Below are positions 6,486 through 37,414 of a stretch of DNA of 37,794 nucleotides, piece after piece. The notes beneath the pieces are model-generated. The model saw only the letters and a program-made list of their open reading frames with translations. It was not told the origin of the DNA and searched no databases. The position numbers and the translations under genes were made by a program. Location: contig NC_057719.1 in the NCBI RefSeq assembly GCF_004010195.1, forward strand, positions 41,301,129-41,338,922, given 5' to 3'. The stretch comes from Chiloscyllium plagiosum. Taxonomy: Eukaryota. Within the stretch, counting starts at the first letter, position 1. Each line of letters starts with the position of its first letter.

Positions 6486-6502
6486 GCCTGTGATGACATT
6501 AT

Positions 6503-8135
6503 GTAAGAAAGGTGGTAAGAAAAAGTCAGGGAACTGTAGACTGGTCGCCTGACGTTAGTGGTGGGAAAGTTGTTGGAAGAGATTCTGTGGGCTAGGATTT
6601 ACATGTATTTGGAAAGGCACGGGCTGATTAGAGATAGTCAACATGGCTTTGTGTGTGGGAAATTGTGTCTAATTAACTTGGTGGAGTTTTTTGAAGAAGT
6701 GAAGCAGGAGATTGAGGAAGGCAGATGTTGTTTATATAGACTTCAGCAAGGCATTCAACAAGGTTCTGCATAGTACACTGGTTGGCAAGGATCACATGGG
6801 ATACAGGGAGAGCTAGCCATTTGGATACAAAATTGGTTGAAGATAGGAGACAGAGGGTGATGGTGGAGGGTTGCTTTTCAGACTGGAGGCAGTGACAAGC
6901 AGTGTGCCACATGGATCAGTGTTGAATCCACTGCTTTTTGTTATTTATATATAGAACATAGAACAGTACAGCACAGAACAGGCCCTTCAGCCCACGATGT
7001 TGTGCTGACCACTGATCCTCATGTATGCACCCTCAAATTTGTGTGACCATATGCATGTCCAGTAGTCTCTTAAATGTCCCCAATGACCTTGCTTCCACAA
7101 CTGCTGCTGGCAATGCATTCCATGCTCTCACAACTGTCTGTGTAAAGAACCCACCTCTATAAATGATTTGAATATGAATATAGCAAGTATGGTTTATAAG
7201 TTTACAGATGACACCAAAATTAGAGGTACAATGGACAGTGAAGAAGGTTACCTCAGAGTACAATGGCACCCAAATCAGATGAGCAAATGTGCCGAGGAGT
7301 GGCAGAAGGTGTTTAATTTAGGTAAATGTGAGGTGCTGCATTTTGGTAAGGCAAATCAGGGCAAGACTTATATGCTTAATGAAAAAGACCAAGGCAGTGT
7401 TGCTGAACAAAGAGACCATGGGATACAGGTTCATAGTTCCTTGAAAGTGGAGTTGCAGGTCGATAGGGTAGTGAAGAAGACGTTTCGTACACTTGCATTT
7501 ATTAGTCAGTGCATTGAAAACAGGAATTGGGTTGTCATATTGTGGTTGTACAGGATATTGAATAGGCCATTTTTGGAATACTGCATGCAACTCTGGTGTC
7601 CTCGCTATAGGAAAGATATTGTGAAGCTTGAAAGGGTTCAGAAAAGATATACAAGGATGTTGCCAAGCTTGGAGGGTTTGAGCTATAGGGAGAGGCTGAA
7701 TAGGCTGGGACTATTTTCCTTGGAGCACCGAAGGATGAGGTATGACCTTATAGAGGTTTATAAAATCATGAGAGACATGGATAGGGTGAATAATCAAGAT
7801 CTTCTCCCCAGGGTGAGGGAGTCCAAAACTAGAGGATATTGGTTTAAAGTGGGAGGGGAAAGATTTAAACGGGTCCTAACGGGCAACGGTTTCATGCAGA
7901 AGGTGATGCACATATAGAATAAGCTGCCAGAAGAAGTGGTGGAGGCTGGTTCAGTAACAACATTTAAAAGGCATTTGGATGGTATATGAATAGGAAGGGT
8001 TTGGAGGGTTATGGGCCAAATGCTGGCAAGTGGGACTTAAATCATGTAGAATATCTGGTCGGCACGAACAAGTTGGACCGAAGGGATGTTCCTGTGCTGT
8101 ACACCTGTATGACTCTATGACTTTATGACTCTAAG
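6503..8135 (+). mobile_element. 5'-truncated CR1-clade LINE (ORF2 RT to 3' tail)
   Basis: ORFs 6558-6773 (DSQHGFV.GK.CL.NL.EFFEEV) and 7168-7917 (KFTDDTK, KCEVLHFG, LERVQKRYTRMLP); (tatgactc)n tail at 8108-8133. Confidence 0.95.
6951..7157 (-). mobile_element. CR1/HER1 3'-end fragment nested antisense within CR1
   Basis: Minus strand encodes GFFTQTVVRAWNALPAAVVEARSLGTFKRLLD and ends in a (ttctatg)n tail; host CR1 resumes at ~7158. Confidence 0.85.
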
Positions 8136-12420: not shown

Positions 12421-12522
12421 AAGGAAAGAACTTGTATATATTATTGTTCACATCGTTGCATTTTAGCCAAGTAATTGAACTTAGATTGTAAGTGCAACTG
12501 CAAATTGTAATTACTTTCCAAC
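12421..12522 (-). mobile_element. 3' part of a SacSINE1-like SINE interrupted by the ERV
   Basis: aaggaaagaacttgtatatat..tttagccaag..ttgtaagtg..ttgtaat follows the reverse-complement SINE 3' end and continues after the provirus at 19697. Confidence 0.5.
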
Positions 12523-13222
12523 TGAAGTGGGAGATGGCATGGGGCAGGGTGACACTAGGCATACGGACACACACGTTGGCCACTGAACCATAAGGTGGCA
12601 CTTGACACACAAGATGACCACTGGACTACAATATGGAGTAAATACACATATTGCCTGGGGCCACCAGAATGCCAGCAAAATGCAATCACAACCTAGTTGA
12701 TTAGTTTAAGGTGGGTGGGGGAGAGAATACACATGAGTTACGTACACGGCCCGCCAAAGTGTCTGGATCCAGCCAACACCTTTGATAGAAATGCTAACAG
12801 TTTGATACAAACTCAATGCAAAGTGCTGTAGTAATCGTCCTTCTCAGGAAAAGTGATTAGCGCCCATTACAACAGCAGTGGACGTCCACGCAGACATTGA
12901 AACTGACAATGTCTGTGCTGAAACTGACAGCGACTGCACTGAAATTAACAAAGGCTGCGCTGGAACTGACAATGACTGCATTGAAACTATCAACGATTCT
13001 GCAATGTTTACAACAAACAAGCAATGTTCCAGAGACAATAACCTTATCACTGACTTATTATATCGCAAAGTGCCTTGACATGTGCGGGGGGTTGAGAGGA
13101 GACTTGCAGCTGGCCACTGTGCTGTTGGTGTCTTTCTCTCCCCAGAGCTCCAGTCCTTGTACAATAAACTTTGCTTTTGTACCCTGACTCTGACTCCGAG
13201 TCTGGTGATTTTCCCTACAACA
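12523..13222 (+). repeat. 5' LTR (700 bp)
   Basis: tgaagtgggag...ctacaaca; colinear with 18973-19692 (15 substitutions plus 1 gap in the first 100 aligned columns); AATAAA at 13163-13168; TATA box deleted relative to the 3' LTR. Confidence 0.95.
12899..13003 (+). repeat. Five degenerate 21-bp tandem repeats in U3 (consensus ~gaaactgacaatgactgcact)
   Basis: Units start at 12899, 12920, 12941, 12962 and 12983; the same array is at 19376-19480. Confidence 0.9.
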
Positions 13223-13224
13223 AT

Positions 13225-13242
13225 TGGCACTGCGAGCAGGGT
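13225..13242 (+). promoter_or_regulatory. Primer-binding site, tRNA-Ser-like
   Basis: TGGCACTGCGAGCAGGGT, 2 nt after the 5' LTR; 16/18 match to the complement of the vertebrate tRNA-Ser(TGA) 3' end as recalled (TGGCGCAGCGAGCAGGGT). Confidence 0.8.
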
Positions 13243-14204
13243 TCTTATTATTGGTGCCCTGTTCGAAGGCCACGATCAGGGGACCAGGGTAAGAACAAAT
13301 TTGTACCTGCAAACGGGAAGAGTCAGACCAGGCCAAGGACACAGTTTAAAAGGTATACCGATTGTAATGTCTGATTTGCTACAGTACTGAGTTAAAAAAA
13401 AGATTTTAAGTTCATGTCTGTGGAGAATAAGTGTTTAACTGTATTAACTGTTGTAAGAACCAGCTGTTTGTGCTGAAACAGCCAGAGGACAGGGTAGTGC
13501 CTGTCTCAAAAGCCCTGCCCTAAACCAGTTGTTAAGAGGGTAGCCCCCACCACGTGAAGGTTGGGATTTGAAGTGGGAATTGAGGTGCCAAGGGCACTGG
13601 GAGCTGTGAAGCACAAGTGGCAAAGTCGGATAACATTGGACTGTGTAGGAGCGAACAATGCAGAGTCCAGTTAGAGTTGAAGTTAAAGGTTGGGTGCTGT
13701 CTGTACTTGTAACTTCCAGTGTGGTGAGGAATTGGAGCTGATCACTCTGACCAAGAGCCAAACCTCAGTGGAGCGCACATAACCAAGGTGGGGAGCATGG
13801 ACACTGTGAGTAACCGTGATACCCTGTCAGTCCGTAGTAGAACGGTGGAACTTGAATAGTGGCGGTGGCCGGGAAGGTAAAGAGTCCCACCGGTAGAGAG
13901 CGCAGTGTGCTAGAGGTAGGTTTCTGGGCCTATTGGGGGGCATTGGGTCAGCAGAGGTGTAGAGGAGTCCTGGTAGAGAGCACACCCTATTGAGCCAGCA
14001 TCCCCAACCGACTGATAGGTAGCAACTAGTAGTGGTGGTCGGGAGGGTAGGGAGGTCCCACTAGTAGAGAGCACACCTTGCTAGGAAGCTGCCATGGCCA
14101 TACAGATTGTGCTGGGACAGTATTATTGGCCAGGGGGTAGAGAAGTCCCCACTGGTTAGGAACACGTTACTGTTGGTAGTATCCGTGGGTACACAATCTG
14201 CTAA

Positions 14205-15505
14205 ATGGCAGATCGAAGTTCTAAGGGGGATACTGCAGGTTCCCTTATTGAGAAATACAAGGCAGACAGACAAGGGCTGACAGAACAAATGAAGAAGAGT
14301 GGTTGGGACCCATCCCAGACATTAGCACAACAGAGACAGTGGATAGATAAGCAGAAATGGAATAAAATAAAAAGCTAGGGGTAATGTTAGTACACCAATT
14401 AGCAGGCCTAATTGAACAAGTAGCAGGTGGAGAGAAGACCAAGAACAAATTGAGGAGCTGGAGGATAGGATAAAGGAGCTAGAACACAGATTATGAAAAG
14501 TACAGAAGGAAAGGGAGATTGACTCTCTCCCCTCCTATGAAACCCTCCAGCAGGGATCAATTGCTCCCTCTGTTGGATGAACCGTGCAGGAGTATAACTT
14601 AGAGCCCATTACCAGACAAGGAACAGACTCACAGCCCAAAGCGAATTATAAATCCTTCACCCCAGGGGAGAGGCACCAAATTATGGCCTTCCTGGAGAAA
14701 TTGCAGCCCCGGAGTGCGAACACTCTGGGAAGAGTTGGATACTGTATGGGAAGGGCACCAACTGAGGGACATACATCAGTTGGTCCAGGCAGCTTGCCCA
14801 GTGAACAAGTAGAGACAGATAGATGGGGGACCTGATGTCACAGCAACCTGAGACTTTAGGGGAGGACGGTGGTCGCATGCCGTTGCCCTTACAGCAGTGA
14901 TAAAAGACCAGCAGGTCCCCTTCGCCAATTTTAAAGAGGAAATCCAGAGAGTGCTAGGAAATGCTCCCATGAACTGGAGCAAGATCACGAACACTGAGCA
15001 ACTTAAAGGGGAAAGAGCCTCTGAATATGGGAAATGATTATTTAGAGCCTATCAAGAATGCTCAGGGCAAGCAAACCCAGATAGGGTGGACCATTCGGGG
15101 GCATTCATCCAAGCTTTTAAAGATGGGCTCTCTTGCACCCACCAAGCCATCCTGAAAAGGGGAGTAATAATGTCCCAGTATTATGATGACCTAGTCGAGT
15201 GGGCTAGCAGGATGCAGGATGCAGAAGCTCCTGCGACAATGACAAGACCTGACAAAGCAGCCTACCCAAATGGAGAAAAGAATAGAATGAAACGATCCTG
15301 CCACAACTGTGGCCGATAGGGACACTTTGCTAGAGAGTGTAGGGTCCCACTAGCAGGAAATAGACCAGGGGACAATGTAAAATACTGCAGCCGCTGCAAA
15401 AGGACAGGACACACAGAAGCAGTGAGCTGGGAAAAGCATGGGGCACCCCCAAACACTACCCGGAACACCGCGGAACTGCGGGAGTCCCGAGATCAGCAGA
15501 GCTGA
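14205..15505 (+). pseudogene. gag: Retroviral gag, disrupted by frameshifts and stops
   Basis: ATG 14205 (MADRSSKG..); coiled-coil EQIEELEDRIKELEHRL; LPSY late-domain-like motif; capsid-like Q.KGE.ASEY...LF and AFIQAFKDGL; knuckles CHNCGR*GHFAREC and CSRCKRTGHTEAVS. Confidence 0.9.
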
Positions 15506-15860
15506 CAACCAGCTGCACCCATATGTGAGGATAAGGGAGAGGGGAGAATTTACAAGCTCACAGTAATAGGAGGGAGGAAATGTGAAATGCTAGTAGACAC
15601 AGGAGGGGCTGTATCCATCACAAATTTACCATTATCCCACACAAGTAAAATGATTCACTTAACTGGGGTAGGAGGGGACAAAACATCAGCTTGCCTAGGC
15701 GAAACTACCCTCGTAGAAATAAACTATATATATGTAATATCCCCATTAAATTCTATGTAAGCCAAAATAACGAGGGTACTATAATGGGCAATGGTCTCAT
15801 GAGAGAATATAATGTTCTAATCGATTGTGCAAAAGGGAAATTGATTTGGCCCAGACAGGA
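15506..15860 (+). pseudogene. pro: Retroviral aspartic protease
   Basis: MLVDTGGAVS (DTG at 15596-15604), flap LTGVGG, and TIMGNGLMREYNVLID after a frameshift; same frame as the end of gag. Confidence 0.92.
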
Positions 15861-15984
15861 TGGTCAGAAGACTGAGATTGGAAAACTTACAAGTCAACTT
15901 GAAACTATTAAAGTGGCTACTGTCACCAGTAGAGACTGGAACCTCGAAAAGGGGGGTTCGGAGCCATCTGTGCCTCCATTCCCA

Positions 15985-17191
15985 GAGCCTGGGCAGAAAC
16001 AAAGTTAGATACAGGTCTAGTTAACATAGGCCCAATAAGGGTTCCCAGGCCGGAGCATAAGCCCCACCAGCAATACCTAATAAAACCCGAAGCAGAACAA
16101 GCAGTTGTGAAGATAGTGCAAGGACTAGCGAAACAGGGAATCCTGAAAGAAACTGCAAGTACGTCTAATTCCCCAATGTGGCCAGTAATAAAGCTTGACA
16201 GGAGTCACAGGCTCACCATTGATTATACGGGACTAAATAAGGTCACCCCCAAATTGCATCCCATTGTAACAGACCCCTCCACCATTTTAAACAGCTTGGC
16301 CCCTGAGCACAAGAGGTTTACTGTTTTAGACATAGCCAACAGGTTCTTGTCTATCCCGTTACATCCTGAGTCCCAGAACAAATTCACTTTTACAGTAAGG
16401 AACAGGCAGTACACATGGACTCGCCTGCCACAAGGGTTCCACAACAGCCCCACTACTTTTCACAGGGAGATGAGAGACATCCTAAACAGAATAGATTTAC
16501 CAGAGGGCAGCACTGCCCTCCAAATGTAAGTAATATCCTAATTGCCTCAGAGTCAGGACACCAGGAAGCTTTATGCCTAGTATTATAGGAACTGGCAACT
16601 GCAGAGTTAAAAGTTTGCCCCACAAAGGCACAGATTGGCATAACCCCAAATTTATACCTTACCTTACAGGGACAGGGACTCAAAGAAATGCCCAATGCCT
16701 TCAAGAAGGCAATCCAACAGATGCCATGACCTGCCACTGTCAGGGGGTCAGAAAGGTCATGGGGCTATTCAACTACAGTTGGAGCTTTATACCTGAGTTC
16801 ACAAAATTGGCTGAACTGATCCAGAGATTAATTAAAGGAGGCAAGCCCACCTTGGAACCTGTAACCTGGGGGCCAGAACAGGAGGAGGCATTCAGTCAGC
16901 TTAAAACTCAGCTCATATTGACCCCCGGGTTAGGGTTTCCAGATCCAGGCAAGGATTTTCACATCCACTGTAATAATGAGGGATGATTTTAGTCTGCAGT
17001 GGTCACCCAAAGACCACGTTAACAGGAGAAGGCGTGTAGGGTACTACTCAACCACAGAAGGGCCAGTAGTCACCGGGTTGCCCAGGTGTATAGCAATCTT
17101 AGACTGTGCTGCTTGGGCCGTTAGGGTTAGTGAGCCCATAGTAATGACAGGGACTGTCATCCTCTGCCCTAAACACACCCTAGTCGAGATG
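15985..17191 (+). pseudogene. pol: Retroviral reverse transcriptase plus connection/tether domain
   Basis: WAETKLDTGLV..QQY.IKPEA, SNSPMWPVIK, RLTIDYTGLNKVTP, FTVLDIAN.F.SIPL, YTWTRLPQGFHNSP; YxDD decayed at ~16521-16537; VMGLFNY..FIPEF, W..EQEEAF..LK..L...P.LG.PD, VGYYS, LPRC. Confidence 0.95.
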
Positions 17192-17416
17192 CATATGATG
17201 TGGTAATAAGTGGGAACACCTGCGCCTGCCTATTTTAAAGGAAAAGGTGCATGGAAGCAGCAGACCCAACTCAAACTGTTTAAAGACTCCTGTGACCAAA
17301 CTAATGTCATTGACCATTCCCCAAGTGCAGACAGGAACAGCGGACAAGATGGTCATCCCGGGGGGAGTACCGAAAACACAACAGAACAAACCACACAAAA
17401 GCACGACTACATCTGA
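17192..17416 (+). pseudogene. pol: Integrase C-terminal remnant (GPY/F-like module)
   Basis: (P)YDVVISGNTCAC, then after a frameshift FKGKGAWKQQTQLKLF, fits GPYxV....A......W.H...LK; no HHCC or DDE core is present upstream. Confidence 0.75.
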
Positions 17417-18916
17417 CAAAAACAAAGACTCTGACTGATAACTTTATTTTAACTGCAAACTGTATATATCTGTATGTGTTTCACTGTGTTTAAATGTCAC
17501 GACTGTCGGGAGCATGTCAAGATTTGAAGATAGCTTCTTCAGTAAAACCCACCTAAGCTTACATGCGAACCGAACTGTCTGCTACCCACTGGTGTGATCA
17601 GTGGAATCACTATTTGTGGCTATCCCGGTGTGGCCCCTCGCGACCCGTATACAGTAGACACCTTGGGAGTGCCGTGTAAGGGGCAGATTGGGAAATACAA
17701 ACAGGGACTCCAGGGCAGATGTGTGCAGCTGGGCAGGACCACCGGCCAATGGGGCTGCGTCCCCCAGCCTAGGGAAGGGAAACCCATTTAAAACCCAGTA
17801 ATTACCCATTCTGTTTCACAGGGCAGGGATGGGCATGTGTTTATACCCTGGTTCCCAAAAACGACTCATGCATCCAGACACAGTACACTTATCAGCGCTG
17901 TACAGTCACTAGGGGATGGTTTACCTGCACCTGCAGCGAGCAGGCATGCTTGAATGTCACTGCGGGCAGACAGTTCATATGTGATCAGTGCAATGGCACC
18001 CATGTCAGCTGTGCCACATGGACATACCCGTTCAATACTTACCAGCTGGTGAGGGGATGGCACCTTGGGGATTGGGGCAACATGCGTACACAGACAAACA
18101 GAAGAACAGAACAATGTATGTTACTGAGCGGCGAAGGGATTTTTTCTATTTGATGAGACTTATGCGACAGACACCCCAGACCTCCCAAACCTGTTCGTGG
18201 TAGGGACAATTGCAACCCTTACTGTACCATACCCCGGGGGGGCATATTTGGAGAAGGATAGTGACCGGCGCCATCAGTCAGGAGTTCTGTGCTGACTGGC
18301 AGGTCCCCACCACTTTGGGGTCATCATTGGGATATGGATTCTTGGGATCGCTATCTTTGGGGGGGGGTGCACAGCAGAAGTCTTCAGCGCTCAAAACCGA
18401 AATTACCTTGTATGTGGCCTGACTATCTGAGGCAATAATACTTCAAAAGCTCTGGAAGAAATTAATACAGAGTTGGCTGAACTCAGACTCTACATACAGC
18501 AGACATGTTACGCGGTGGATTATCAATTAGCAAAGCAAGGAGGAGTTTGTACAATTATTGGTGACAATTATATTACCCATGTTATTGATGCCTCTTATAA
18601 CATTACAGAAGCCATCAAGAATATTCGAGACCAGCTCGACAATTTTCGAAAGGGAGCCATAATTACAGACAACTGGCTAAATTGGTTGCTAGGTAAATCT
18701 TGGGGACCCTATTTGGCACATGAGATAATTCTCCTCATTGCACTCCTGCTGGTACTCTGTGTGGGCCTCGGGTGTTTAAAGCTCTGCTGTAAGGTGCTAC
18801 TGATGAGAACTATACCAGCAGCGAGTGTCACCACAGAAGGGCCCCCAACAAAATTGGCACTCCATGATACCCCTCGGGAAGAGGAGCTCCGAGAGATGAT
18901 CTGCCTCTACATGTGA
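17349..18916 (+). pseudogene. env: Retroviral env with filovirus-GP2-like TM subunit, disrupted
   Basis: Hydrophobic signal-like LYISVCVSLCLNV; Cys- and sequon-rich SU; basic site WRRIV(TG)AIS; C..fusion loop..C; ISD-like ELRLYIQQTCYAVDYQLAKQGGVC; Trp-rich membrane-proximal region; TM helix IILLIALLLVLCVGLGCL; stop at 18914-18916. Confidence 0.92.
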
Positions 18917-18961
18917 ATTGGGTGGTCTGCGGGAGATTTCCGAAGTTGTCTCCTTGACCAC

Positions 18962-18972
18962 AAAGGGGGGAG
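18962..18972 (+). promoter_or_regulatory. Polypurine tract
   Basis: aaaggggggag directly before the TG of the 3' LTR. Confidence 0.92.
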
Positions 18973-19692
18973 TGAAGTGGGAGATGGCACAGGTCAGGGT
19001 GACACAAGGCACATGGACACACAAGATGGCTGCTGAGCCATAAGCTGGCCACTTGACACATAAGATGGCTACCGGATCATAATATGGAGAGAGACAGCAG
19101 AGCAAATGTAGATACTGCCTGGGGCCACCAGAATGCCAGCACAATGCACTCACAACCTGGCGGATTAGTTTAAGATGGGTGGGGGAGAGAATACTCATGA
19201 GTAGCATATACTGCCTGCCAAAGTGTCTGGGTCCAGCCAACACCTTTTATAGAAATGCTAACAGTTTGATATGGACTCAGTACAGAGTGCTAATAGCCAG
19301 GGTTGCAGTAATCATCCTTTTCAGGAAAAGCGCTTAGCGCCCATTACCACAGCAATGGACTTCCGCGCAGACATCGAAACTCACAATGTCTGCACTGAAA
19401 CTGACAATGACCGCACTGAAATTAATAAAGACTGCGCTGGAACTGATAATGATTGCATCAAAACTATCGACAATTCTGCAACGTTTACAACAAACAAACT
19501 ATGTTCCAGAGAATAACCTCATCACTGACCTATTATATCACAAAATGTATAAAAGTATCTTGACATGTGCTCTGAGTGGAGAGAAGAATCGCAACTGACA
19601 ACTTGGTATCTTTCTCTCCCCAGAGTTCCAGTATTCCCTTTTACAATAAACTCTATTGTTGAACCCCGAAGCTGGTGATTTTCCTTGCAACA
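18973..19692 (+). repeat. 3' LTR (720 bp)
   Basis: tgaagtgggag...ttgcaaca followed by TSD caac; TATAAAA at 19548-19554; AATAAA at 19645-19650; two YY1-like AAGATGGC motifs near 19023 and 19062. Confidence 0.95.
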
Positions 19693-19696
19693 CAAC

Positions 19697-20874: not shown

Positions 20875-23044
20875 GTGTTCATAAAGTTGTCAAAAGTTTT
20901 AATACTAAGGGCTGGAAGAATTATAACATGCAGCAGAGGAAGACATTGATAAGGAAATAGAGAATAGAATATGGATGCAACCTAGCAAGAAACTTAAAAA
21001 TGAGTTCTTAAAACCTTGTCATGTATTAGAGAAAGAAATGATTAACAATTAAAATGTGAGTTATTTACAGAAAGAGACGTAAGTCCATAACAGAAAATAT
21101 AGAAATGCAGAGAACCAAAATAGTCATTTTGTGTCTACCTTCACAGAGGCAAACCCAAGAAGTCCCCCTGGTATAATTAAGATCCAGGGTTATTGGCAGC
21201 ATAAAACTGAAAGAAATTAGTCCTTGTAACAAAGTAATATTAGAGAATAAATGATACTGAAAGCTGATTCATCTAGCGTGTTGAAAGAGATGTTTATTGA
21301 GCCAACAGATCCACTGGTGATCATCTTTCAAAATTCTATTAACTCTGCAATGATGCCTGCAGTTTGGGGTTTACAAATGTAACCCTACTGTTTCAGAGAA
21401 GATAGAGAGAGAAAACAGAGAACTACAGATCTATTAGCCTGACGTCAGTAGTAGGGGAAGTTACAGAAGCAATTTTAAAGGATGTGATTACATTACATGT
21501 AGAAAAAAATTGCCTGACTGGGAGGAGTCAACATAGATTTATGAAAGATAATCATGTTGACAAACCAGCCAGAGTTTTTTGAGGGTGTCACTTGGAGAAT
21601 GACATGGAGTGTAGTATATTTAGATTTTCAGAAAATTTTTTAAAAATCCAGTGCAGGTTACTCAACAAAGTTAAAACTCATGGGATTGGGATAATATATT
21701 AGCATAGATTCTGGATTGGTTAATGGGCAGAAAATAGAGGGTAGGAACAAATCTGTCATTCTCAGGTTGGCAAGCTGTGACCAGTGGCATACCACAAGGA
21801 TCAGTGCCAGGGCCTCAACTTTTCACAATCTATCTTAATTATTTGAAGATGGAGGCCTTTGTAAAAGTTCCAAGTTTGCAAATGACACTAAACTTGGTGG
21901 GATCGCGAATTGCATAGAAGATGTGAAGAGGTTCAAGGGAACTTAAATAGCACAGTAATGGCAGGAGCATGGCAGATGGACCACAATGTTGATAAATGTG
22001 ACATTATCAGTTTTGTAGGAGGAATGAAGTTGCAAAGCATTTCTTAAATGGCAAGAAGGGTATTGATATCCAAAGGGACATAGGTGTCCTTGTGCATAAG
22101 TCACTGAAAACTGGAATACACATGTAACAGTAATTTGGAAGGAAAGTGGAGTGTTAGCTTTTATCACAAAATAACTTGAAAGCTGGAGCAAAGACGTCTT
22201 GGCACAATTGTATAGAACATTAGTGAGACTGTGCCTGGAGTATTTTGTGCACTTTCGATCCCTTGTCTAATGACAGATATACTTGCCATGGCAGGATTAC
22301 AGCAAAGGTTCAACAGACTGAATCCTGCAATGCTGGGATTGTCCTATGATGAGAGATTCAGGAGACCAGACCTGTATTCTCTGGAGTTGAGAAGATTGAG
22401 AGATGATCTCATATAAACTTATAGAATTCTTAAAGGGATAGACAAGATGGATGCAGAAAGAATACTTCTCCTGGCTGTCGGGTATAGAACTGTGGGACAT
22501 AGAATAAAGGACAACTCATATAGGGCTGAGATGAGGAGAAACCTCTTTATTCAGAGGGTGGTGAATCTTTGGATATTTCTATCCCAGAGTGCTGTGGAGG
22601 CTCAGTCATTAAGTAATATCAAGGGAGAAATTGATAGATTTCTCATCACTAATAACACCAACGTGTATGGGGATAGCATGATAATATGAGGGAGATGGTC
22701 AGCCATCATCACGAATGGCAGAACAGAGAAGATGAGCAAAACGGCCAATTCCTGCTCCGATCTTCTTATTTTTGGATACCTGAAATATTTTTGTTCTAGT
22801 TTTACTGTGATCTCCTTCTTCGTTTCTGCTTGTAGATTGATGGCTGTACTGGTTTTCCTGTTCTCAACATGAAGTCGAAAATTTTATCACCTCTGGTTTA
22901 ATTTCCAACCTTTCCACACCTTCAAATTATCCATCTCTAATTCTTACATTTCTCCAGCTTTTGGTCTCCATTCCTGCAGTTTGACAATCAATGAGTATTT
23001 ATCACTGACTTCCAATGCTACATCGATTATAATGTCTGATATCT

Positions 23045-24720
23045 TAGTTCGATAACATAATGGGATAAAAAATGAAGTAGAGCAAGGTAGTAGACAAAAA
23101 CACACCCTCCCTGATGCGCTCAATGCTTTCTATGCTTGGTTTGAGCAGAATGCCAGCAACGCGATGTCCCTTGCCCAGATAGCCCTGGACACACCTGTTC
23201 CCTCCATCACCACTACAGACATCAGGTCATCTTCCTGGGAGTCAACCAGAGAAAAGCAATGGGCCTAGATAAAGTCCCTGGCCATGCACTTAAATCCTGG
23301 CAGACCAGCTAGCAGAGGTATTTGCTGACATCTTCAACCTCTCCTTGCTACAATTCAAAGTCCCTACCTGCTTCAAGAAGACCACCATTATCCCAGTACC
23401 AAAACATAACACTTGCAGCGTGCCTTAATGACTATCGCCTAGTGGCTCTGACTTCCATCATCATGAAGTGCTTCGAGACACTGGTCATGGCTCACAGCAA
23501 CTTCAGTCTGCCAGTCTGCCTCGACCCCCTGCAATTTGCCTACCGATGTGACAGGTCCATAGCTGACACCATTTCCCTGGTCCTGCATTCCTCCCTGGAA
23601 CACCCAGACAACAAGGACACATATGTCAGGCTCCTACTCATCAACTACAGCTCCGCCTTTAACACCATAATCCCCTCCAGACCAATGTCAAAACTCCAAA
23701 ATCTAGGTCTCCGCTTTACCCTCTGCAAGTGGATCCTCAAATTCCTGATCCACAGACTGCAATCAGTGAAGATAGACACGATAATCCTTAACGCTGGCAC
23801 CCCACAATGATGAGTTCTCAGCCGCATACAATACTCCCTGTATATCCACAACTATGTAGCAAAATTCCCTCTGAATGTCATCTACAAGTTCGCTGGTAGG
23901 ATGGTTATTAAACATAGATGAGTCAGAAACAGAAATGAGATAAAGTGCTTGGTGTTGTGGTGTAATATTAACAATCTCTCTCTTAATGTTGGCAAAACAA
24001 AAGAACTGACCATTGACTACAGGAAGAAAGGATGAGGACATGCCCCTATCTACATCAATGGTGCTGAGGTGGAAGGGTCGAGAGCATCAGATTGATGTTA
24101 ACTGAAAATTTGTTCTGGACCTCCCACGTGAATGCATTGGTGAAGAAAGCACAATAAAGCCTCTTCTTCCTCAGACAGCTTAGGAATAGCAGCATATTCA
24201 TAAGGACCCTCACCAACTTGTACAGATGCATCATAGAAAGCATTCTATCCGGGTGCAGAACGGCCTAGTTCAGCAACTGCTCTGCCCAGGACTGTAAGAA
24301 ACTACAGAAAGTTGTGGGCACAGCCCAGACCATCATGGAAGCCAACGTCTCATCCATTGAGTCCATTTACACACCTCATTGTTGCAAAAAGATTGCCAAT
24401 ATCATCAAAGACTCATAACACCCTTGTAATGCTTTCCTATAACCTCTCTGTCAGGCAGAAGATACAGAAGCTTGAACACATGTATCAACTGGATTAAGAG
24501 CAGCTTCTTCTTCCCTGCTGGTATTAGGCTGCTGAATGGACCTCTCTAGCTTCAAATAGTGTTGATCTTGCTTTACGCACTTCTTGTGCAGCTGTAACCT
24601 TGTATGCCTTGCTCTGTCTAAGCACCCTTTAATCTGTACGTCCCGTTTGTTATGATCTGCCTGTACTGCCTTTCACTGTATTTAGATACATGTGGCTACA
24701 GTAAATCAAATCAAATCAAA
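23045..24720 (+). mobile_element. Rex1/Babar-clade LINE, 5'-truncated, decayed
   Basis: ORF 23322-23810 ([47 protein letters not shown]); NVGKTKELTIDYRK; (aaatc)n tail at 24703-24720. Confidence 0.9.
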
Positions 24721-27160: not shown

Positions 27161-27475
27161 TTTTTTTTTAGATAAGATTACTTACAGTGTGGAAACAGGC
27201 CCTTTGGCCTAACAAGTCCACACTGACCCTCCAAAGAGTACGCCACCCAGACCAATCCCCCTACATTTACCCCTTCACTTAACACTACGGGCAATTTAGC
27301 ATGGCCAATTCACCTAATCTGCACATTTTGGGCTGTGGGAGGAAACCGGAGCAAACCCACACAGACACAAGGAGAATGTGCAAACTCCACACAGATAGTT
27401 GCCTGTGGCAGGAATTAAACCCGGGTCTCTGGTGCCGTAGGCAGCAGTGCTAGCCACTGTGCCACCGTGCCGCCC
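27161..27475 (-). mobile_element. HE1-type tRNA-derived V-SINE
   Basis: Minus strand begins gggcggcacggtggcacagtggctagcactgctgcc (A box)..gacccgggtttaattcc (B box); V-domain tgtgtggagtttgcacattctcc; CR1-derived 3' tail; attt on both flanks. Confidence 0.92.
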
Positions 27476-28345
27476 ATTTGGGTGGAAATAAGAAAGCGAT
27501 GATCACCTTATTGGGAATATATTATGGACTCCATAATAGTCAGCGGAAAATTGTAAAACAAATTTGTAAGGAGATTTCAGTTATCAGTAAGAAAAATAGG
27601 ACAGTTATGGTAGGGAATTTTAACTTTCCAAACATAGACTGGGACTGCCATAGTGTTAAGGGCTTAGATGGAGAGGAATTTGTTAAATGTGTACAAGAAA
27701 ATTTTCTGATTAAGTATTTGGATTTTCCTACAAGAAAAGGTGCAAAACTTGACCTATTGTTGGGAAATAAGGCAGGGCAGGTGACTGAGGTGTCAGTGGG
27801 GGAGCACTTTGGGGCCAGCGACCATAATTCTATTAGTTTTAAAATAGTGATGGAAAAGGATAGACTAGATCTAAAAGTTGAAGTTCTAAATTGGAGAAAG
27901 GCTAATTTTGACGGTTAGGCAAGAACTTTCAAAAGCTGATTGGGGGTAGATGTTCTCAGTTAAAGGGATGGCTGGAAAATGGGAAGCCTTCAGAAATGAC
28001 ATAACAAGAATCCAGAGAAAGTATATTCCTGATAGGGTAAAAGGAAAGGCTGGTAGGTGTAGGGAAAGCTGGATGACTAAAGAAATTGAGGTTTTGGTCA
28101 AGAAAAAGAAGGAAGCATATGTCAGGTATAGACAGGATAGATCGAGTGAATCCTTAGCATAATGTAAAGGCAGTAGGAGTATACTTAAGAGGGAAATCAG
28201 GAAGGCAAAAAGGGGACATGAGATAGCTTTGGCAGATAGAGTTAAGGAGAATCCAAAGGGATTTTACAAATGCATTTAGGACAAAAGAGTAACTAGAGAG
28301 AGAGAATAGGGCCCCTCAAAGATCAGGCAGCATCTGAGGAGGAAG

Positions 28346-28384
28346 AAAATCGACGTTTCGGGCAAAAGCCCTTCATCAGGAATA
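28346..28384 (-). ncRNA. Minimal type I hammerhead ribozyme motif (intact core)
   Basis: Minus strand: auuc-CUGAUGA-aGGGC-uuuu-GCCC-GAAAC-GUC-gauu. Confidence 0.75.
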
Positions 28385-28393
28385 CTCTGCCTA

Positions 28394-28432
28394 TATTCCT
28401 GATGAAGGGCTTTTGCCCGAAATGTTGATTTT
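28394..28432 (+). ncRNA. Minimal hammerhead ribozyme motif (CpG-decayed copy)
   Basis: attc-CTGATGA-aGGGC-tttt-GCCC-GAAAT-GTT-gatt; two C>T changes relative to the minus-strand copy. Confidence 0.6.
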
Positions 28433-31400
28433 CTTGCTCCTCGAATGCTGCCTGAACTGCTGTGCTTTGCCAGCACCACTCCACTCCAGAATCTGGTTTC
28501 CAGCATCTGCAGTCATTATTTTTACCCCCCTCAAAGATCATCAAGGCAGCCTACATGTGGAGCCAGTGTTTACTGTGGAGAAGATATCTAATGTGGGAAA
28601 ATAGATGGTGACATCTTGAAAAATGTCCATATTACAGAGGAGAAGGGCTGGATGTCTTGAAATGCATAACAGTGGATAAATCCCCAGGACCTGATCAGGT
28701 GTACCCTAGAACTCTGTGGGAAGCTAGGGAAATGATTGCCCCTTGCTGAGATATTTGTATCATTGATAGTCACGGGTGAGGTGCAGGAAGACTGGAGGTT
28801 GGCTAACATGATGCCGGTATTTAAGAAAGGTGGTAAGGAGAAGCTAGGGAACTATAAACCGGTGAGCCTGACATTCATTGTGGACAAGTTGTTGGAGGGA
28901 ATCCTGAGGGAGAGGATTTACATGTATTTGGAAAGGCAAGAACTGATTAGAGATAGTCAGCATGGCTTTGTGCGTGGGAAATCATGTCTCACGAACTTGA
29001 TTGAGTTTTTTGAAGAAGTGACAAAGAGGATTGATGAGGACAGAGCAGTAGACATGATCTATGTGGACTCCAGTAAGGCCTTCAACAAGGTTCCTCATGG
29101 GAGACTGGTTAGCAAGGTTAGATCTCAAGGAATACAGAAAGAACTAGCAATTTGGATAGAGAACTGGCTCAAAGGTAGAAGACAGAGGATGGTAGTGGAG
29201 GGTTGTTTTTCAGACTGGAGGCCTGTGACCAGTGGAGTGCCACAAGGATCGGTGCTGGGTCCTCTACTTTTTATCATTTACATAAATGATTTGGATGCGA
29301 GCATAAGAGGTGCAGTTAATAAGTTTGCAGATGACACCAAAATTGTCTAGTGGACAGTGAAGAGGGTTACCTCAGATTACAACAAGATCTTGACCAGGTA
29401 GGCCAATGGGCTGAGAAGTGGCAGATGGAGTTTAATTCAGATAAATGCAAGGTGCTACATTTTGGGAAAGCAAATCTTTGCAGGACTTATACACTTAATG
29501 GTAAGGTCTGAGGGAGTGTTGCTGAACAAAGACACCTTGGAGTGCAGGTTCATAGCTCCTGTTGCCAGGGTTGGAAGACTTGAGCTATAGGGAGAGGCTG
29601 AACAGGCTGGGGCTGCTGTGCCTGGAGTGTCGGAGGCTGAAGGGTGACTTTATCGAGGATAACAAAATTATAAGGGGCATGGATAGGATAAATAGACAAA
29701 GTGTTTTCCCTGGGGTCAGGGAGTCCAGAACTAGAGGGCATAGATTTAGGGTGAGAGGGGAAAGTTCTAAAAGAGACCTAAGGGGCAACTTTTTCACACA
29801 GAGGATGGTATGTGTATGGAATGAGCTGCCAGAGGAAGTGGTGGAGGCTGGTACAATTGCAACATTTAAGAGCCATTTGGATGGGTATATGAATAGGAAG
29901 GGTTTGGAGGGATATATGCCGGGTGCTGGCAGGTGGGATTAGATTGGGTTGGGATATATGGTCGGCATGGATGGGTTAGACCGAAGGGTCTGTTTCCATG
30001 TTATACATCTCTATGACTCTATATTGTAAAAAATAGCAGCTGATCATGGTGAGCTGTGAGAAAGCAGAAAATGCATCCTTTCAGAACCAGAAGCATATAT
30101 AATTGCATAATCTGTTCTGAGCACCTACTATTCTACATAATTTTGCATCCTTTAATAACTGTGAATGTTTGTAATAAAAGAAAGATCATGTTTACACCAC
30201 TAATAAATGCCACTATTAGTCATTGACTCTGTGGAACAATAACAAAACTATTTAAATAGAGAGTTTTTTTATTTAAATAGTTTTGTATACTGTACTTTTT
30301 TTTACTGAGAGGAAATAGACAAATGTCTACTTAATAGAAAAGATGTTTACTGGGGATGCACATAAATTATGGTGAGTTGAATATTTGGCACACAACAAAA
30401 AAGATATGATGTTTATATTTCAGGTAGCAGATAGCATGATTTGATATAAATCACTTTTAGAAGAAAGCAGTTTATAAAAGTATTTTATAATTTCAATCTT
30501 GCAAAACATTGTGTTAGCAATAAAAATATTTGCATCCTTATTGAACTGATCATTCAATTCAATTCTTCAAAAACTAATTTCATAGCCAATTTCTAGATGA
30601 TCAGATAAGCTTTCAATTGTCTTAATTTGGCTTTACATAAATTTATATTTTTTGAACAAACGCCGTTCCTGAAAATCATACCACTGCAACCAATTGATTC
30701 TTTGACATAAAACTGTTCCTTTTCCCTTTTTAGTTGACTGACTCCTAAAATGGGGCAGTTTCAGTTGTCTGGAGTTTCAAAAGCTTTATAAAAGCATTTT
30801 GTACCCTAGCCATGCATGGATATTGCCATCTCTCGTAAAAGTGATTTCAGTTCCCTCAGGTAATAAACAATCTCTCGATCCATAATGTGTTTCTTGATTG
30901 ACAAGTGACATAAAGCTCGTTTCAGCTGCTAAAAGGAGGTGAAAGGAACAAAAGCATCAAAAAGCTTGCAGGATATTGAGTTTTCCTGTCTGCCTCATTT
31001 ACACTACACACTGTCTTGTCTGAACAAGACAGAATCTTAATTTCACAAGAAATGCATTGAGGGCCCAACTGTGAAAAAAAAGTACTATGGAAAGTTTATA
31101 GTACATAAATAGAGTTGTAATCCCTTTAGAAAAATTATATTTAAATACCGTCTTGATCTCATCCAAGGTAAGTGGCTTGCATTTCTTTGGTACAGATGGA
31201 TGTAAGAATAAATCTTGTGATTAAGCTTTTATATTCCCTGTGAAACATAAAGACCAATCACTGGAATGTGGGAGACAATGGGTTAGATGCTCTTCCAGTA
31301 GATCCATCATTTAATTTGGAGCATTTTACTTGGAAATAGTCATCACTATCAAATAACCTGATCTACCTCTTATATCAACAGATTTGTGACCATTAAGATA

Positions 31401-33110: not shown

Positions 33111-33410
33111 CGTTTTTCAGACTAGAGGCCGGTGACCAATAATATTTCTTAGGGTGCTGGATCCACTGTTGGTTGTGATTTAAATAAATGATTTGGATGA
33201 GAATTTAGGTTGCATGGTTAGTAAGCTTGTGGGTGACACTAAAAATCATACATAACAGTGAAGAAGGTAATTTAAGATTACAAAGAAATCTTGATCAATT
33301 GGGCCAATGGGCTGAGGAGCGGCAGATAGAGACTAATTCTGATAAATGCAAGGTATTGCACTTTAATAAAACAAACAAGGGCATGACTTATGCATTTAAT
33401 GTTGGAATGT
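33111..33410 (+). mobile_element. CR1 RT fragment
   Basis: VLDPLL..INDLDE, LRLQRNLDQLGQWAEE, DKCKVLHF. Confidence 0.85.
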
Positions 33411-35090: not shown

Positions 35091-36730
35091 TATTGCACAA
35101 ATCTGAAGAAGGCACAAAACCTTTCAGACAGCTAGATGACATCATGATATTTGATACTCTTGGCTGAAAGGTTTCTATGGAACTTTGTTCAGCTGAACCT
35201 GATATCTTCAATTAGTTGAACAGCCAGCCAGCCAGCCTATCAGTCAGTTAGTTAGTGAGTTAACCATGTGCATAATATATTCGTATTATATAACCTGAAC
35301 TATAAGCAAGTCTGAAATGTCATATTAGTGTACATAGTTAGTTGTTAATAAACTTCCAGATGTCTGTTTCAATAAGAACCCACATCTCAGTGGTATATGT
35401 TACATGGCTAACAAATAGAAAACTGCACCACATCACTAGACTCTAATACACCCCCAATTTTATGATTCCACCATTAAACATGGGGAAAAACCTTAAGAAC
35501 AGCCTCAACAACATTTTGTGGAAAGGACATCCAGACTTATATCAGAAAATCAGAAAATGCTTTCTAACATCATTGTTGAACAGCCTCGTTTTTAACCATT
35601 ACAAATAATATATAGCCTGCAAAACAGACTCTTTGGCCCGATCAGTCAATACAACCCTTTATAGACTTCATTGTTTAACTACCAGGATACCCATTTTCCT
35701 CCTTCCTTTAAAAACATTTCTGCTATCACTGCAATCACTCCCCAAATCCTCCCACCAACTTTAGGGAAAGAAAAGCTTCAGAATTCTGTATTAGATTTCT
35801 TGTGGCTATCTTACATTGATGGCTTCTTGTTTTGCTCTCCCTGATAAGTAGAAATATTGTGCTGGATTTTACCAGAAAACAGGTAAGTGTCAACTTTGCT
35901 GAGTTTTATTGAGGGGTTCTCTCTATGAATACCTACAAGATTTCTGACACTATTCTCTGAAACCTGCTTCCTTAACTTTGCACCACAACTCAATGACCTC
36001 CCTCTCATCCTATCTTCTCTCTCACTAGAGGCTGAAGTACTCACCACTGTTGGGACCACCTGGGATTCCTGGCACCAATGCCATATTTAAAGCCCAGGTC
36101 AAATGCTGCCAATCAGGAGTTGTCTTTTATTATTGTTCCTGGTAAGAAAGGTCCAAACAGAAATGCTTCTCAAGACACATTGATGGTACAACTGATACTT
36201 CATTGTGCAAGTTCTCATTAGTAAATGTATTGCTATTTAAGAAGCAAGTTACATAGCTTACTCATTCTTAGCTTTATCCCGTCTCAGAATCCTAGTTAAC
36301 AGAGTGCTAATCCCCCAGTACCAAGTGTACACCACATCTCAGTCATCTCAACCATTACACTGCATGACTTTGACAGGGGGATAGTTGGAGGTATTGGAGC
36401 AACATGCTGGGATACATTTGGGACAATAATTGGAAAGTATGGCAACTCAGCATTAGAAAACATGGGTTCCTGAAGTCTCTCTGCACTTTCCACTCAGGAT
36501 ACTGCAGAGGAAGCCAAGCCCTCCACCTCCACCCTGCTCACCCACCTCTGACCCTTGGAAGTTCAAGTTGATAAAGGTCAACTTGCCTCTAAAAAGGCAA
36601 CCCTCAGCATGTCTGCCCCATCGAGTTACAAGTGCCCCCAAGGTTACCTGACCAAACTTCCAAGGCCAACAGGCTCAACAGCAAAGCAGGCTCCCTCCAT
36701 TCCAGCAGCAGAATCAGGGAGTTCGCTAAG

Positions 36731-36769
<39 letters not shown>
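36731..36769. repeat. Compound (AT)n(AG)n microsatellite
   Basis: Directly visible. Confidence 0.97.
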
Positions 36770-36773
<4 letters not shown>

Positions 36774-37414
36774 AGAAAGCCCACTGAGGACACTTTGGTG
36801 GGCAGAGTTAAAAAAGGCTTGTACATAAATCTCAGGGTGTATACAAATGTTCCTTTCATGTTAACTTTCATGTCTTTGTGGATCTTTTTGTATAGGGGTT
36901 CAATGTGTTTTCACACCATTCAGCAGCACTTCATGGCCATAGTTGAGGTGACCATGCCTTGTGCATTTGTTTTCTCACCTTCCTTGACATATTGGCACTC
37001 TTCACAACGGATAACTTCCCCTCCTGAAATTCACCCTTCCCAGCTTTGTTTTCTTGTATCCTGGTGCAGACCACTCCACAACTGCACTGTATTCTGGTGC
37101 AAAACCTGCATCTCCCAGTCCCAAACAATAACCTGCTGCGGGTCAGTCCCACAGCAACAGCCAAACTTGTGCCCCTCCCCCTGTCTGACTAATTCTTGTG
37201 GATGGACCCAATGGACTGACTGTGACCCACCCCATTGACTGGCAGGATCAGACAGTCTGAGGCAAGATGTGTCCAAACTCCTGGTTGGTGCCAATACATC
37301 TCCCTGATCAGGTTAGCCTGATCTCCTGGACATATACTATGGAACCAAAGGACTGACTGTGACTTACTCTCCATACTGCAAAGACATAGGTCCCCTGATT
37401 GATAAAACCATGAC

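Follow-up and report, generated by a model that had tools for sequence, protein, structure and literature searches.

Does the broken envelope gene at this locus come from an ordinary shark retrovirus, or does its transmembrane subunit (TM) stand close to GP2, the fusion subunit of the filovirus glycoproteins? A preliminary description of the window (the whole stretch of 37,794 nucleotides analysed here) had argued for a shark retroviral Env lineage near filovirus GP2 and implied that such a lineage was new. The proximity is supported by our profile and loop-cysteine results, but the novelty is not, since a sister placement and a capture from retroviruses are already reported (PMC11521997).

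Anatomy of the provirus

The env TM stretch is held in a decayed retrovirus copy of 7.2 kb (12523-19692; Table 1), which is most likely the dead remnant of an old endogenous retrovirus (ERV) that exists in many copies in cartilaginous fishes. Its reverse transcriptase (RT) region is recognised by Pfam (RVT_1, E 1e-13, plus RT_RNaseH_2), and the tblastn match to a natural Pol stops at 17191; integrase-type frames are kept in the family copies L016, L021 and L030. The window copy itself is a non-functional fossil, unable to make Env or integrase. At the gag/pro boundary (15503-15508) the gag TGA is in frame with pro and is followed by CAA, which we take to resemble a stop read-through arrangement, and gag carries zinc-knuckle remnants at about 15300-15430.

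Table 1. Features of the provirus in the window.
Feature	Position	Strand	Basis or remark
Target-site duplication, left copy, 4 bp	12519..12522	+	same 4-mer directly 3' of the 3' LTR
5' LTR, TG...CA	12523..13222	+	repeat alignment with the 3' LTR
Primer-binding site, tRNA-Ser(TGA)	13225..13242	+	complementary pattern in two genomic tRNA-Ser(tga) genes
gag, broken, taking an in-frame TGA before pro as its end	14205..15505	+	three-frame translation; limits approximate
pro-pol, broken (protease, RT, tether), stopping at the deletion junction	15506..17192	+	Pfam; tblastn of natural Pol
Deletion junction, about 1.7 kb missing (RNase H and integrase)	17192..17193	+	blastn maps against other copies
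Start of env (signal peptide, SU), interrupted by several frame changes and stops	17460..18269	+	tblastn of the natural relative P0158
TM N-terminus with an internal fusion loop, hydrophobic and glycine-rich	18270..18415	+	TM start inferred from relatives
In-frame stop in HR1	18428..18430	+	sequence
HR1, ISD-like stretch, CX6C chain-reversal loop, HR2	18431..18650	+	frame translation, alignments
Membrane anchor and cytoplasmic tail	18700..18916	+	hydropathy 3.5; stop 18914-18916
Polypurine tract	18962..18972	+	sequence
3' LTR	18973..19692	+	right copy of the target site at 19693-19696

The two LTRs are 85.7% identical over 679 columns (K2P 0.162), and the corresponding K2P is 0.114-0.145 in eight other family copies; an exact 4-bp target duplication flanks four of the eight other two-LTR copies. 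With a shark mutation rate of 7e-10 per generation (PMC10587355), the LTR age would come to about 1e8 generations, a figure that we rejected as not credible, and the provirus is dated as old and no further. The U3 of both LTRs (12900-13000 and 19380-19480) contains a row of short imperfect repeats around GAAACTGACAA. Internal deletions differ among the family copies L013-L032, and one gag deletion, joining about 14486 to 15361, is common to several of them, which suggests a deleted sub-lineage that went on spreading.

As to class, the RT scores 94.9 against foamy, 88 against MLV and 51 or less against lentiviral RTs. The foamy score is slightly above that of MLV, yet Gag has zinc-knuckle remnants, and class I is at least as likely as class III. 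By these scores the RT is not class II-like, in contrast to that of the alpharetrovirus ASLV. Elements of the XtERV-S type, a class III ERV with a class I env, share the serine primer-binding site with our provirus but have a 5-bp target duplication, compared with 4 bp here (PMC8278194).

Elsewhere the window holds decayed LINE copies (1-1800, 6500-8100, 21760-21850, 23313-23810, 27454-30000 and 33150-33400), with Pfam matches to LINE endonuclease and RT at 27454 and 28736. Near-perfect inverted repeats with arms of 42-72 nt lie at 402-506, 893-1036 and 28320-28458; the latter two are related and resemble head-to-head SINE or LINE ends. Open frames at 36552-37238 (228 aa) and 7087-7917 (276 aa) have no Pfam match, and the second overlaps LINE repeats.

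The transmembrane subunit and its family

The env gene runs from about 17460 to 18916 and contains several stops and no fewer than four frame changes. The preliminary description had correctly located the G run that holds the TM frameshift (18359-18367), the stop at 18428-18430 and the loop-cysteine codons at 18288 and 18413. The hydropathy peak falls between these two cysteines, and the fusion peptide is not N-terminal on TM, unlike in the definition of the gamma-type Env (PMC3758190). An internal loop between the cysteines is upheld, although the distance of about 42 codons given for it was measured across the frameshift; in unbroken relatives 40-44 residues separate the cysteines and enclose a hydrophobic stretch. 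Downstream of the breaks, an unbroken TM frame of 161 aa (18431-18913) carries sequons in HR1 (18434) and HR2 (18599). The chain-reversal loop (18548-18574) lacks the third cysteine of the CX6CC motif, and in the window copy the second as well. Its preceding ISD stretch matches TLV_coat positions 441-548 in divergent form (E 8.8e-5, just under the cut-off); on the window TM as a whole, TLV_coat and Ebola-like_HR1-HR2 are both weak and under their Pfam cut-offs.

A search of the genome (3.56 Gb) finds at least 150 relatives of this TM; of 2079 candidates, 150 were scored and gave 152 matches. Cysteines and sequons were tallied in 40 matches from the head of the list of 152. The cysteine counts are from the DNA level, in place of a tblastn tally that gave no reading of the first cysteine in 18 of the 40. 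The loop cysteines, on whose conservation the preliminary description had made its case depend, are kept in 31 of 36 readable copies (first) and 32 of 39 (second), and both are present in 24 of 35. The chain-reversal cysteines occur in 39/40 and 30/40 copies, while the third CX6CC position is never a cysteine, neither in the 40 copies nor in the 22 natural family proteins listed. The likeness to GP2 architecture that had been claimed holds for the loop layout, but the family's CX6C without a third cysteine had been missed. By the tblastn tally, the sequon asparagine is kept in 34 of 40 copies for HR1 and 37 of 40 for HR2.

Natural relatives in protein libraries are 45-71% identical, and those named are all chondrichthyan (Pristiophorus, Heterodontus, Rhincodon and Mobula). 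Their SU has about 270 residues. The shark members have no standard R-X-X-R cleavage motif, and the deeper relatives P0021 and P0066 do have one. Together with P0014 and P0016 these branch off deeper within the family (100/99) and have a longer loop of 42-44 residues, and P0014 has an additional N-terminal region of about 150 aa.

Similarity to filovirus GP2

When the window TM was read with X at both breaks (P0001) and searched by phmmer against PDB, its residues 49-126 aligned without gaps to filovirus GP2 (E 1e-10 to 1e-8), and the leading matches were all filoviral. The best was 9x3j (E 1.2e-10, 44.6 bits); Ebola GP2 scored about 31-38 bits, syncytin-2 28.7 and reptarenavirus GP2 (4n21) 27.7. 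The gapless 77-residue alignment with about 26 identities that the preliminary description gave for a variant of ebolavirus GP2 is borne out by chain 9vt4 (E 1.3e-8), where a hand count on the printed alignment gives 27/77. The unbroken 161-aa frame finds the same kind of proteins, so the likeness to GP2 holds with the broken part left aside. The GP2 alignments begin just before the second loop cysteine, and thus the loop architecture is common while the loop sequence mostly is not.

A family profile built from 14 natural proteins gave against PDB 81.7 bits for Ebola GP, 48.7 for syncytin-2, 46.3 for reptarenavirus GP2, 23.5 for ASLV and 20.2 for MLV, with 56.6 bits for the core-only Ebola chain 2ebo. 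The best match among solved structures is therefore a filovirus/reptarenavirus glycoprotein, and in the comparison of GP2 with ASLV and gamma-type TMs that had been proposed, as far as it could be run, the profile prefers GP2. Some family members pass the Pfam cut-off for Ebola-like_HR1-HR2.

As a control we used P0008, an ordinary Env of Scyliorhinus torazame with CX6CC and no cysteine loop. Its scores and those of the family member P0154 are, respectively, 40.1 and 33.4 bits on 2ebo, 52.7 and 44.2 on 9bsu, and 49.9 and 54.5 on 5uqy; P0008 prefers syncytins (86.6 bits), for which P0154 reaches only 27. Because the control scores equally on the GP2 core, the 26/77 identities do not set the lineage apart. 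The LxCGL, ELR, AxD and GGxCxIxG motifs and both sequons are all present as described, but several of these shared features are not diagnostic, given the equal score of P0008 and a HR1 glycan that is common in non-mammalian gamma-type Envs (PMC9967133). As judged from sequence, the distinguishing marks of the lineage are the loop motif and the profile contrast.

The search with the C-terminal 161 aa placed about 75 non-family Envs above the glycoprotein (GP) of Tapajos virus, a snake filovirus (P0091, YP_010798909.1), which ranked 90 among the best 150 of 281 matches and was the sole hit identified as filoviral. Full-length relatives gave no GP1 or Filo_glycop match. An apparent extension of the Tapajos homology into SU (hhalign, 188 columns, probability 99.5) was refuted by an SU-only profile, in which Tapajos fell outside the top 12 of 77 non-family proteins at less than 0.7 bits, where shuffles reach 8.6. 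With a loop-only profile Tapajos came second of 100, but at only 6 bits; a snake (Pseudonaja) Env, P0113, with an upstream cysteine and a CX5C loop, topped that profile, and its tree position is unstable. In the ESM Atlas, SU leans to retroviral Env clusters (0.93), and TM falls with TLV_coat clusters and with no filovirus cluster among the clusters of 50 or more members searched. AlphaFold2 on P0154 with a 14-row alignment gave no usable fold (pLDDT 33).

Phylogenetic placement

A quick tree was built from 134 of 167 proteins, the other 33 being too short or unanchored; the window TM nests in a family of 23 rows, which Tapajos joins with SH-aLRT 92. For a careful tree, 41 rows were picked to represent the clades of the quick tree, and support is 99/91 for the family and 99/91 for the family with Tapajos GP. 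After removal of the loop columns and of two long-branch rows, the values are 97/85 and 81/81, Tapajos being a long branch in this tree. Ordinary shark CX6CC Envs form clades separate from the family, and their forced union with it is marginally rejected (p-AU 0.040). Since Tapajos is the only filovirus among the rows, none of which is an ebola, marburg, reptarenavirus, ASLV or lizard (Mabuya, Varanus) sequence, the trees support a placement inside the filovirus-like ingroup and no more.

Relation to a published lineage

Nino Barreat and Katzourakis (2024; PMC11521997) reported that ectodomains from cartilaginous-fish ERVs are sister to the GP2 of ebola-, cueva-, marburg- and dianloviruses. 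The posterior for that grouping of cartilaginous-fish ERVs with ebola/marburg-type GP2 was moderate (0.83; 0.89 for the ingroup), Tapajos grouped with lizard ERVs (posterior 1), and three captures from retroviruses were concluded. Their retroviral elements come from Chiloscyllium, Scyliorhinus, Amblyraja and Leucoraja, and their table adds Rhincodon loci that lie within LTR elements and have a filovirus as best hit. Our family has in common with that lineage the host group, including Rhincodon members, the location at env within LTR elements 6-10 kb long, and a filovirus GP as best viral hit. We likened it to the published rows by host, position and best hits rather than by sequence identity, and the env of the window copy probably falls within the ERV lineage that they place as sister to the ebola/marburg-type GP2 ectodomains. 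The available passages of that paper say nothing of the cysteine-clamped loop, the absence of a third cysteine, SU or copy number.

Other work touches the family from several sides. A literature search joining cartilaginous fish, endogenous retrovirus, ebola and fusion loop returned no paper. A survey of anamniote Envs with CXnC subtypes and novel fusion peptides (10.1101/2021.11.23.469661) may include it under another name. The chondrichthyan "syncytin-like" Env candidates of 2026 all have CX6CC and R-X-X-R, and filoviruses are unmentioned in the parts of that text available (10.64898/2026.05.06.723177); such ordinary gamma-type Envs share hosts, the ISD and heptad repeats with our family. 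ASLV shares the loop cysteine pair, whose disulfide is predicted in the family; the family differs by lacking CX6CC, by its low profile score and by its RT. The avian gamma-type Env was defined in PMC3758190, with 27% TM identity between ALV and filoviruses and the same loop and glycan. Further context came from PMC8278194, PMC11089739 and PMC10587355.

Ebola/Marburg GP2 shares with the family the gapless 77-residue match from HR1 to HR2, the motif at the second loop cysteine and both sequons, but it keeps the third cysteine of CX6CC; the family's loop, by comparison, is glycine-rich and mostly unalignable, and its SU has no detectable GP1 match. Tapajos GP is of similar length (461 aa) and, like the family, has the cysteine pair (spacing 38) and no third cysteine, which the reptarenavirus chain 4n21 also lacks; it differs by a CX7C loop, a TM core identity of at most 37-43% and no significant SU match.

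Alternative origins

These likenesses to Tapajos GP, its grouping with the family in our trees and its rank as best hit for 4 of the 14 chondrichthyan loci tabled in PMC11521997 would fit a separate chondrichthyan Env lineage in the same broad ingroup, nearer to Tapajos GP and the lizard elements than to ebola/marburg GP2, in which case the published cartilaginous-fish set may mix two lineages. We regard this as quite unlikely: Tapajos had no other filovirus in the trees to compete with, single members score higher on Marburg-type GP2 (54.5 bits), and SU-only similarity to Tapajos GP1 is nil. It is also very unlikely, in our estimate, that family and GP2 merely both retain an old non-mammalian gamma-type TM state, shared ancestry rather than sisterhood being all that 70-90 columns resolve. 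The equal performance of P0008 on the GP2 core, the 27% identity of the ASLV TM to Ebola/Marburg GP2 (PMC3758190), the fall in support without loop columns and the TLV_coat company of TM among Atlas clusters of 50 or more members would all agree with such retention. The profile gap (GP2 82 vs ASLV 24) speaks against it, as do a match running through the second loop cysteine that the control lacks, the recovery of family plus Tapajos on core columns (81/81) and the same grouping reached independently in PMC11521997.

That the gene moved from a filovirus, as a lone insertion or by capture into a retrovirus, is extremely improbable, even though the best solved matches are all filoviral and Hoetzel (10.1101/2021.11.05.467493), describing a domain common to both SU and GP1, does not decide between the two directions for the deep origin. 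The gene stands in the place of env within a complete LTR element that has many copies, there is no GP1 match and SU leans to retroviral clusters, and fish filoviruses have no such ectodomain according to PMC11521997. An endogenized filovirus glycoprotein would stand outside a retroviral element and show GP1 homology, and the window env does neither; a lone insertion of a filovirus gene is thus unlikely.

A putative fusogen and its bearing on filovirus entry

Class I fusion proceeds by cleavage, insertion of a fusion segment and collapse into a six-helix bundle. Proviral anatomy, homology, conserved motifs and breaks are direct observations in our family, whose Env, when intact, most likely acted as a class I fusogen of the published ERV lineage. 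Its precursor would be cut into SU (about 270 residues) and TM, the putative disulfide-clamped internal loop would enter the target membrane, and HR1 and HR2 would then fold into the six-helix bundle. The third cysteine of CX6CC makes the SU-TM bond in gamma-type Envs (PMC9967133), and with none in the family the association of SU and TM was probably non-covalent. An endosomal or low-pH trigger would be a guess by analogy with ASLV and filoviruses.

A bolder reading, which we hold to be unlikely, makes the family a living-fossil sister of all filovirus glycoproteins including that of Tapajos. No retroviral protein would then be closer to GP1 than its short SU, and its Env, non-covalent and with the cysteine loop, would be a fourth type of TM. 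If true, there would have been one ancient capture and not the two published, and the Ebola/Marburg GP1-GP2 disulfide would have been gained or kept separately.

The cysteine-clamped loop was known only from avian retroviruses in 2013 (PMC3758190). Beyond what the available passages of PMC11521997 describe, our analysis adds that the family is large within a single genome, that a loop of this kind is conserved outside birds, that the cysteine linking SU to TM has been lost and that several sharks have natural relatives of full length. These details merit a note and not a claim of discovery. Where the filovirus entry protein came from is a real question, for which this already published lineage is the current best candidate for the nearest retroviral kin, and its full-length relatives would permit SU to be compared with GP1, beyond the 80-residue core.
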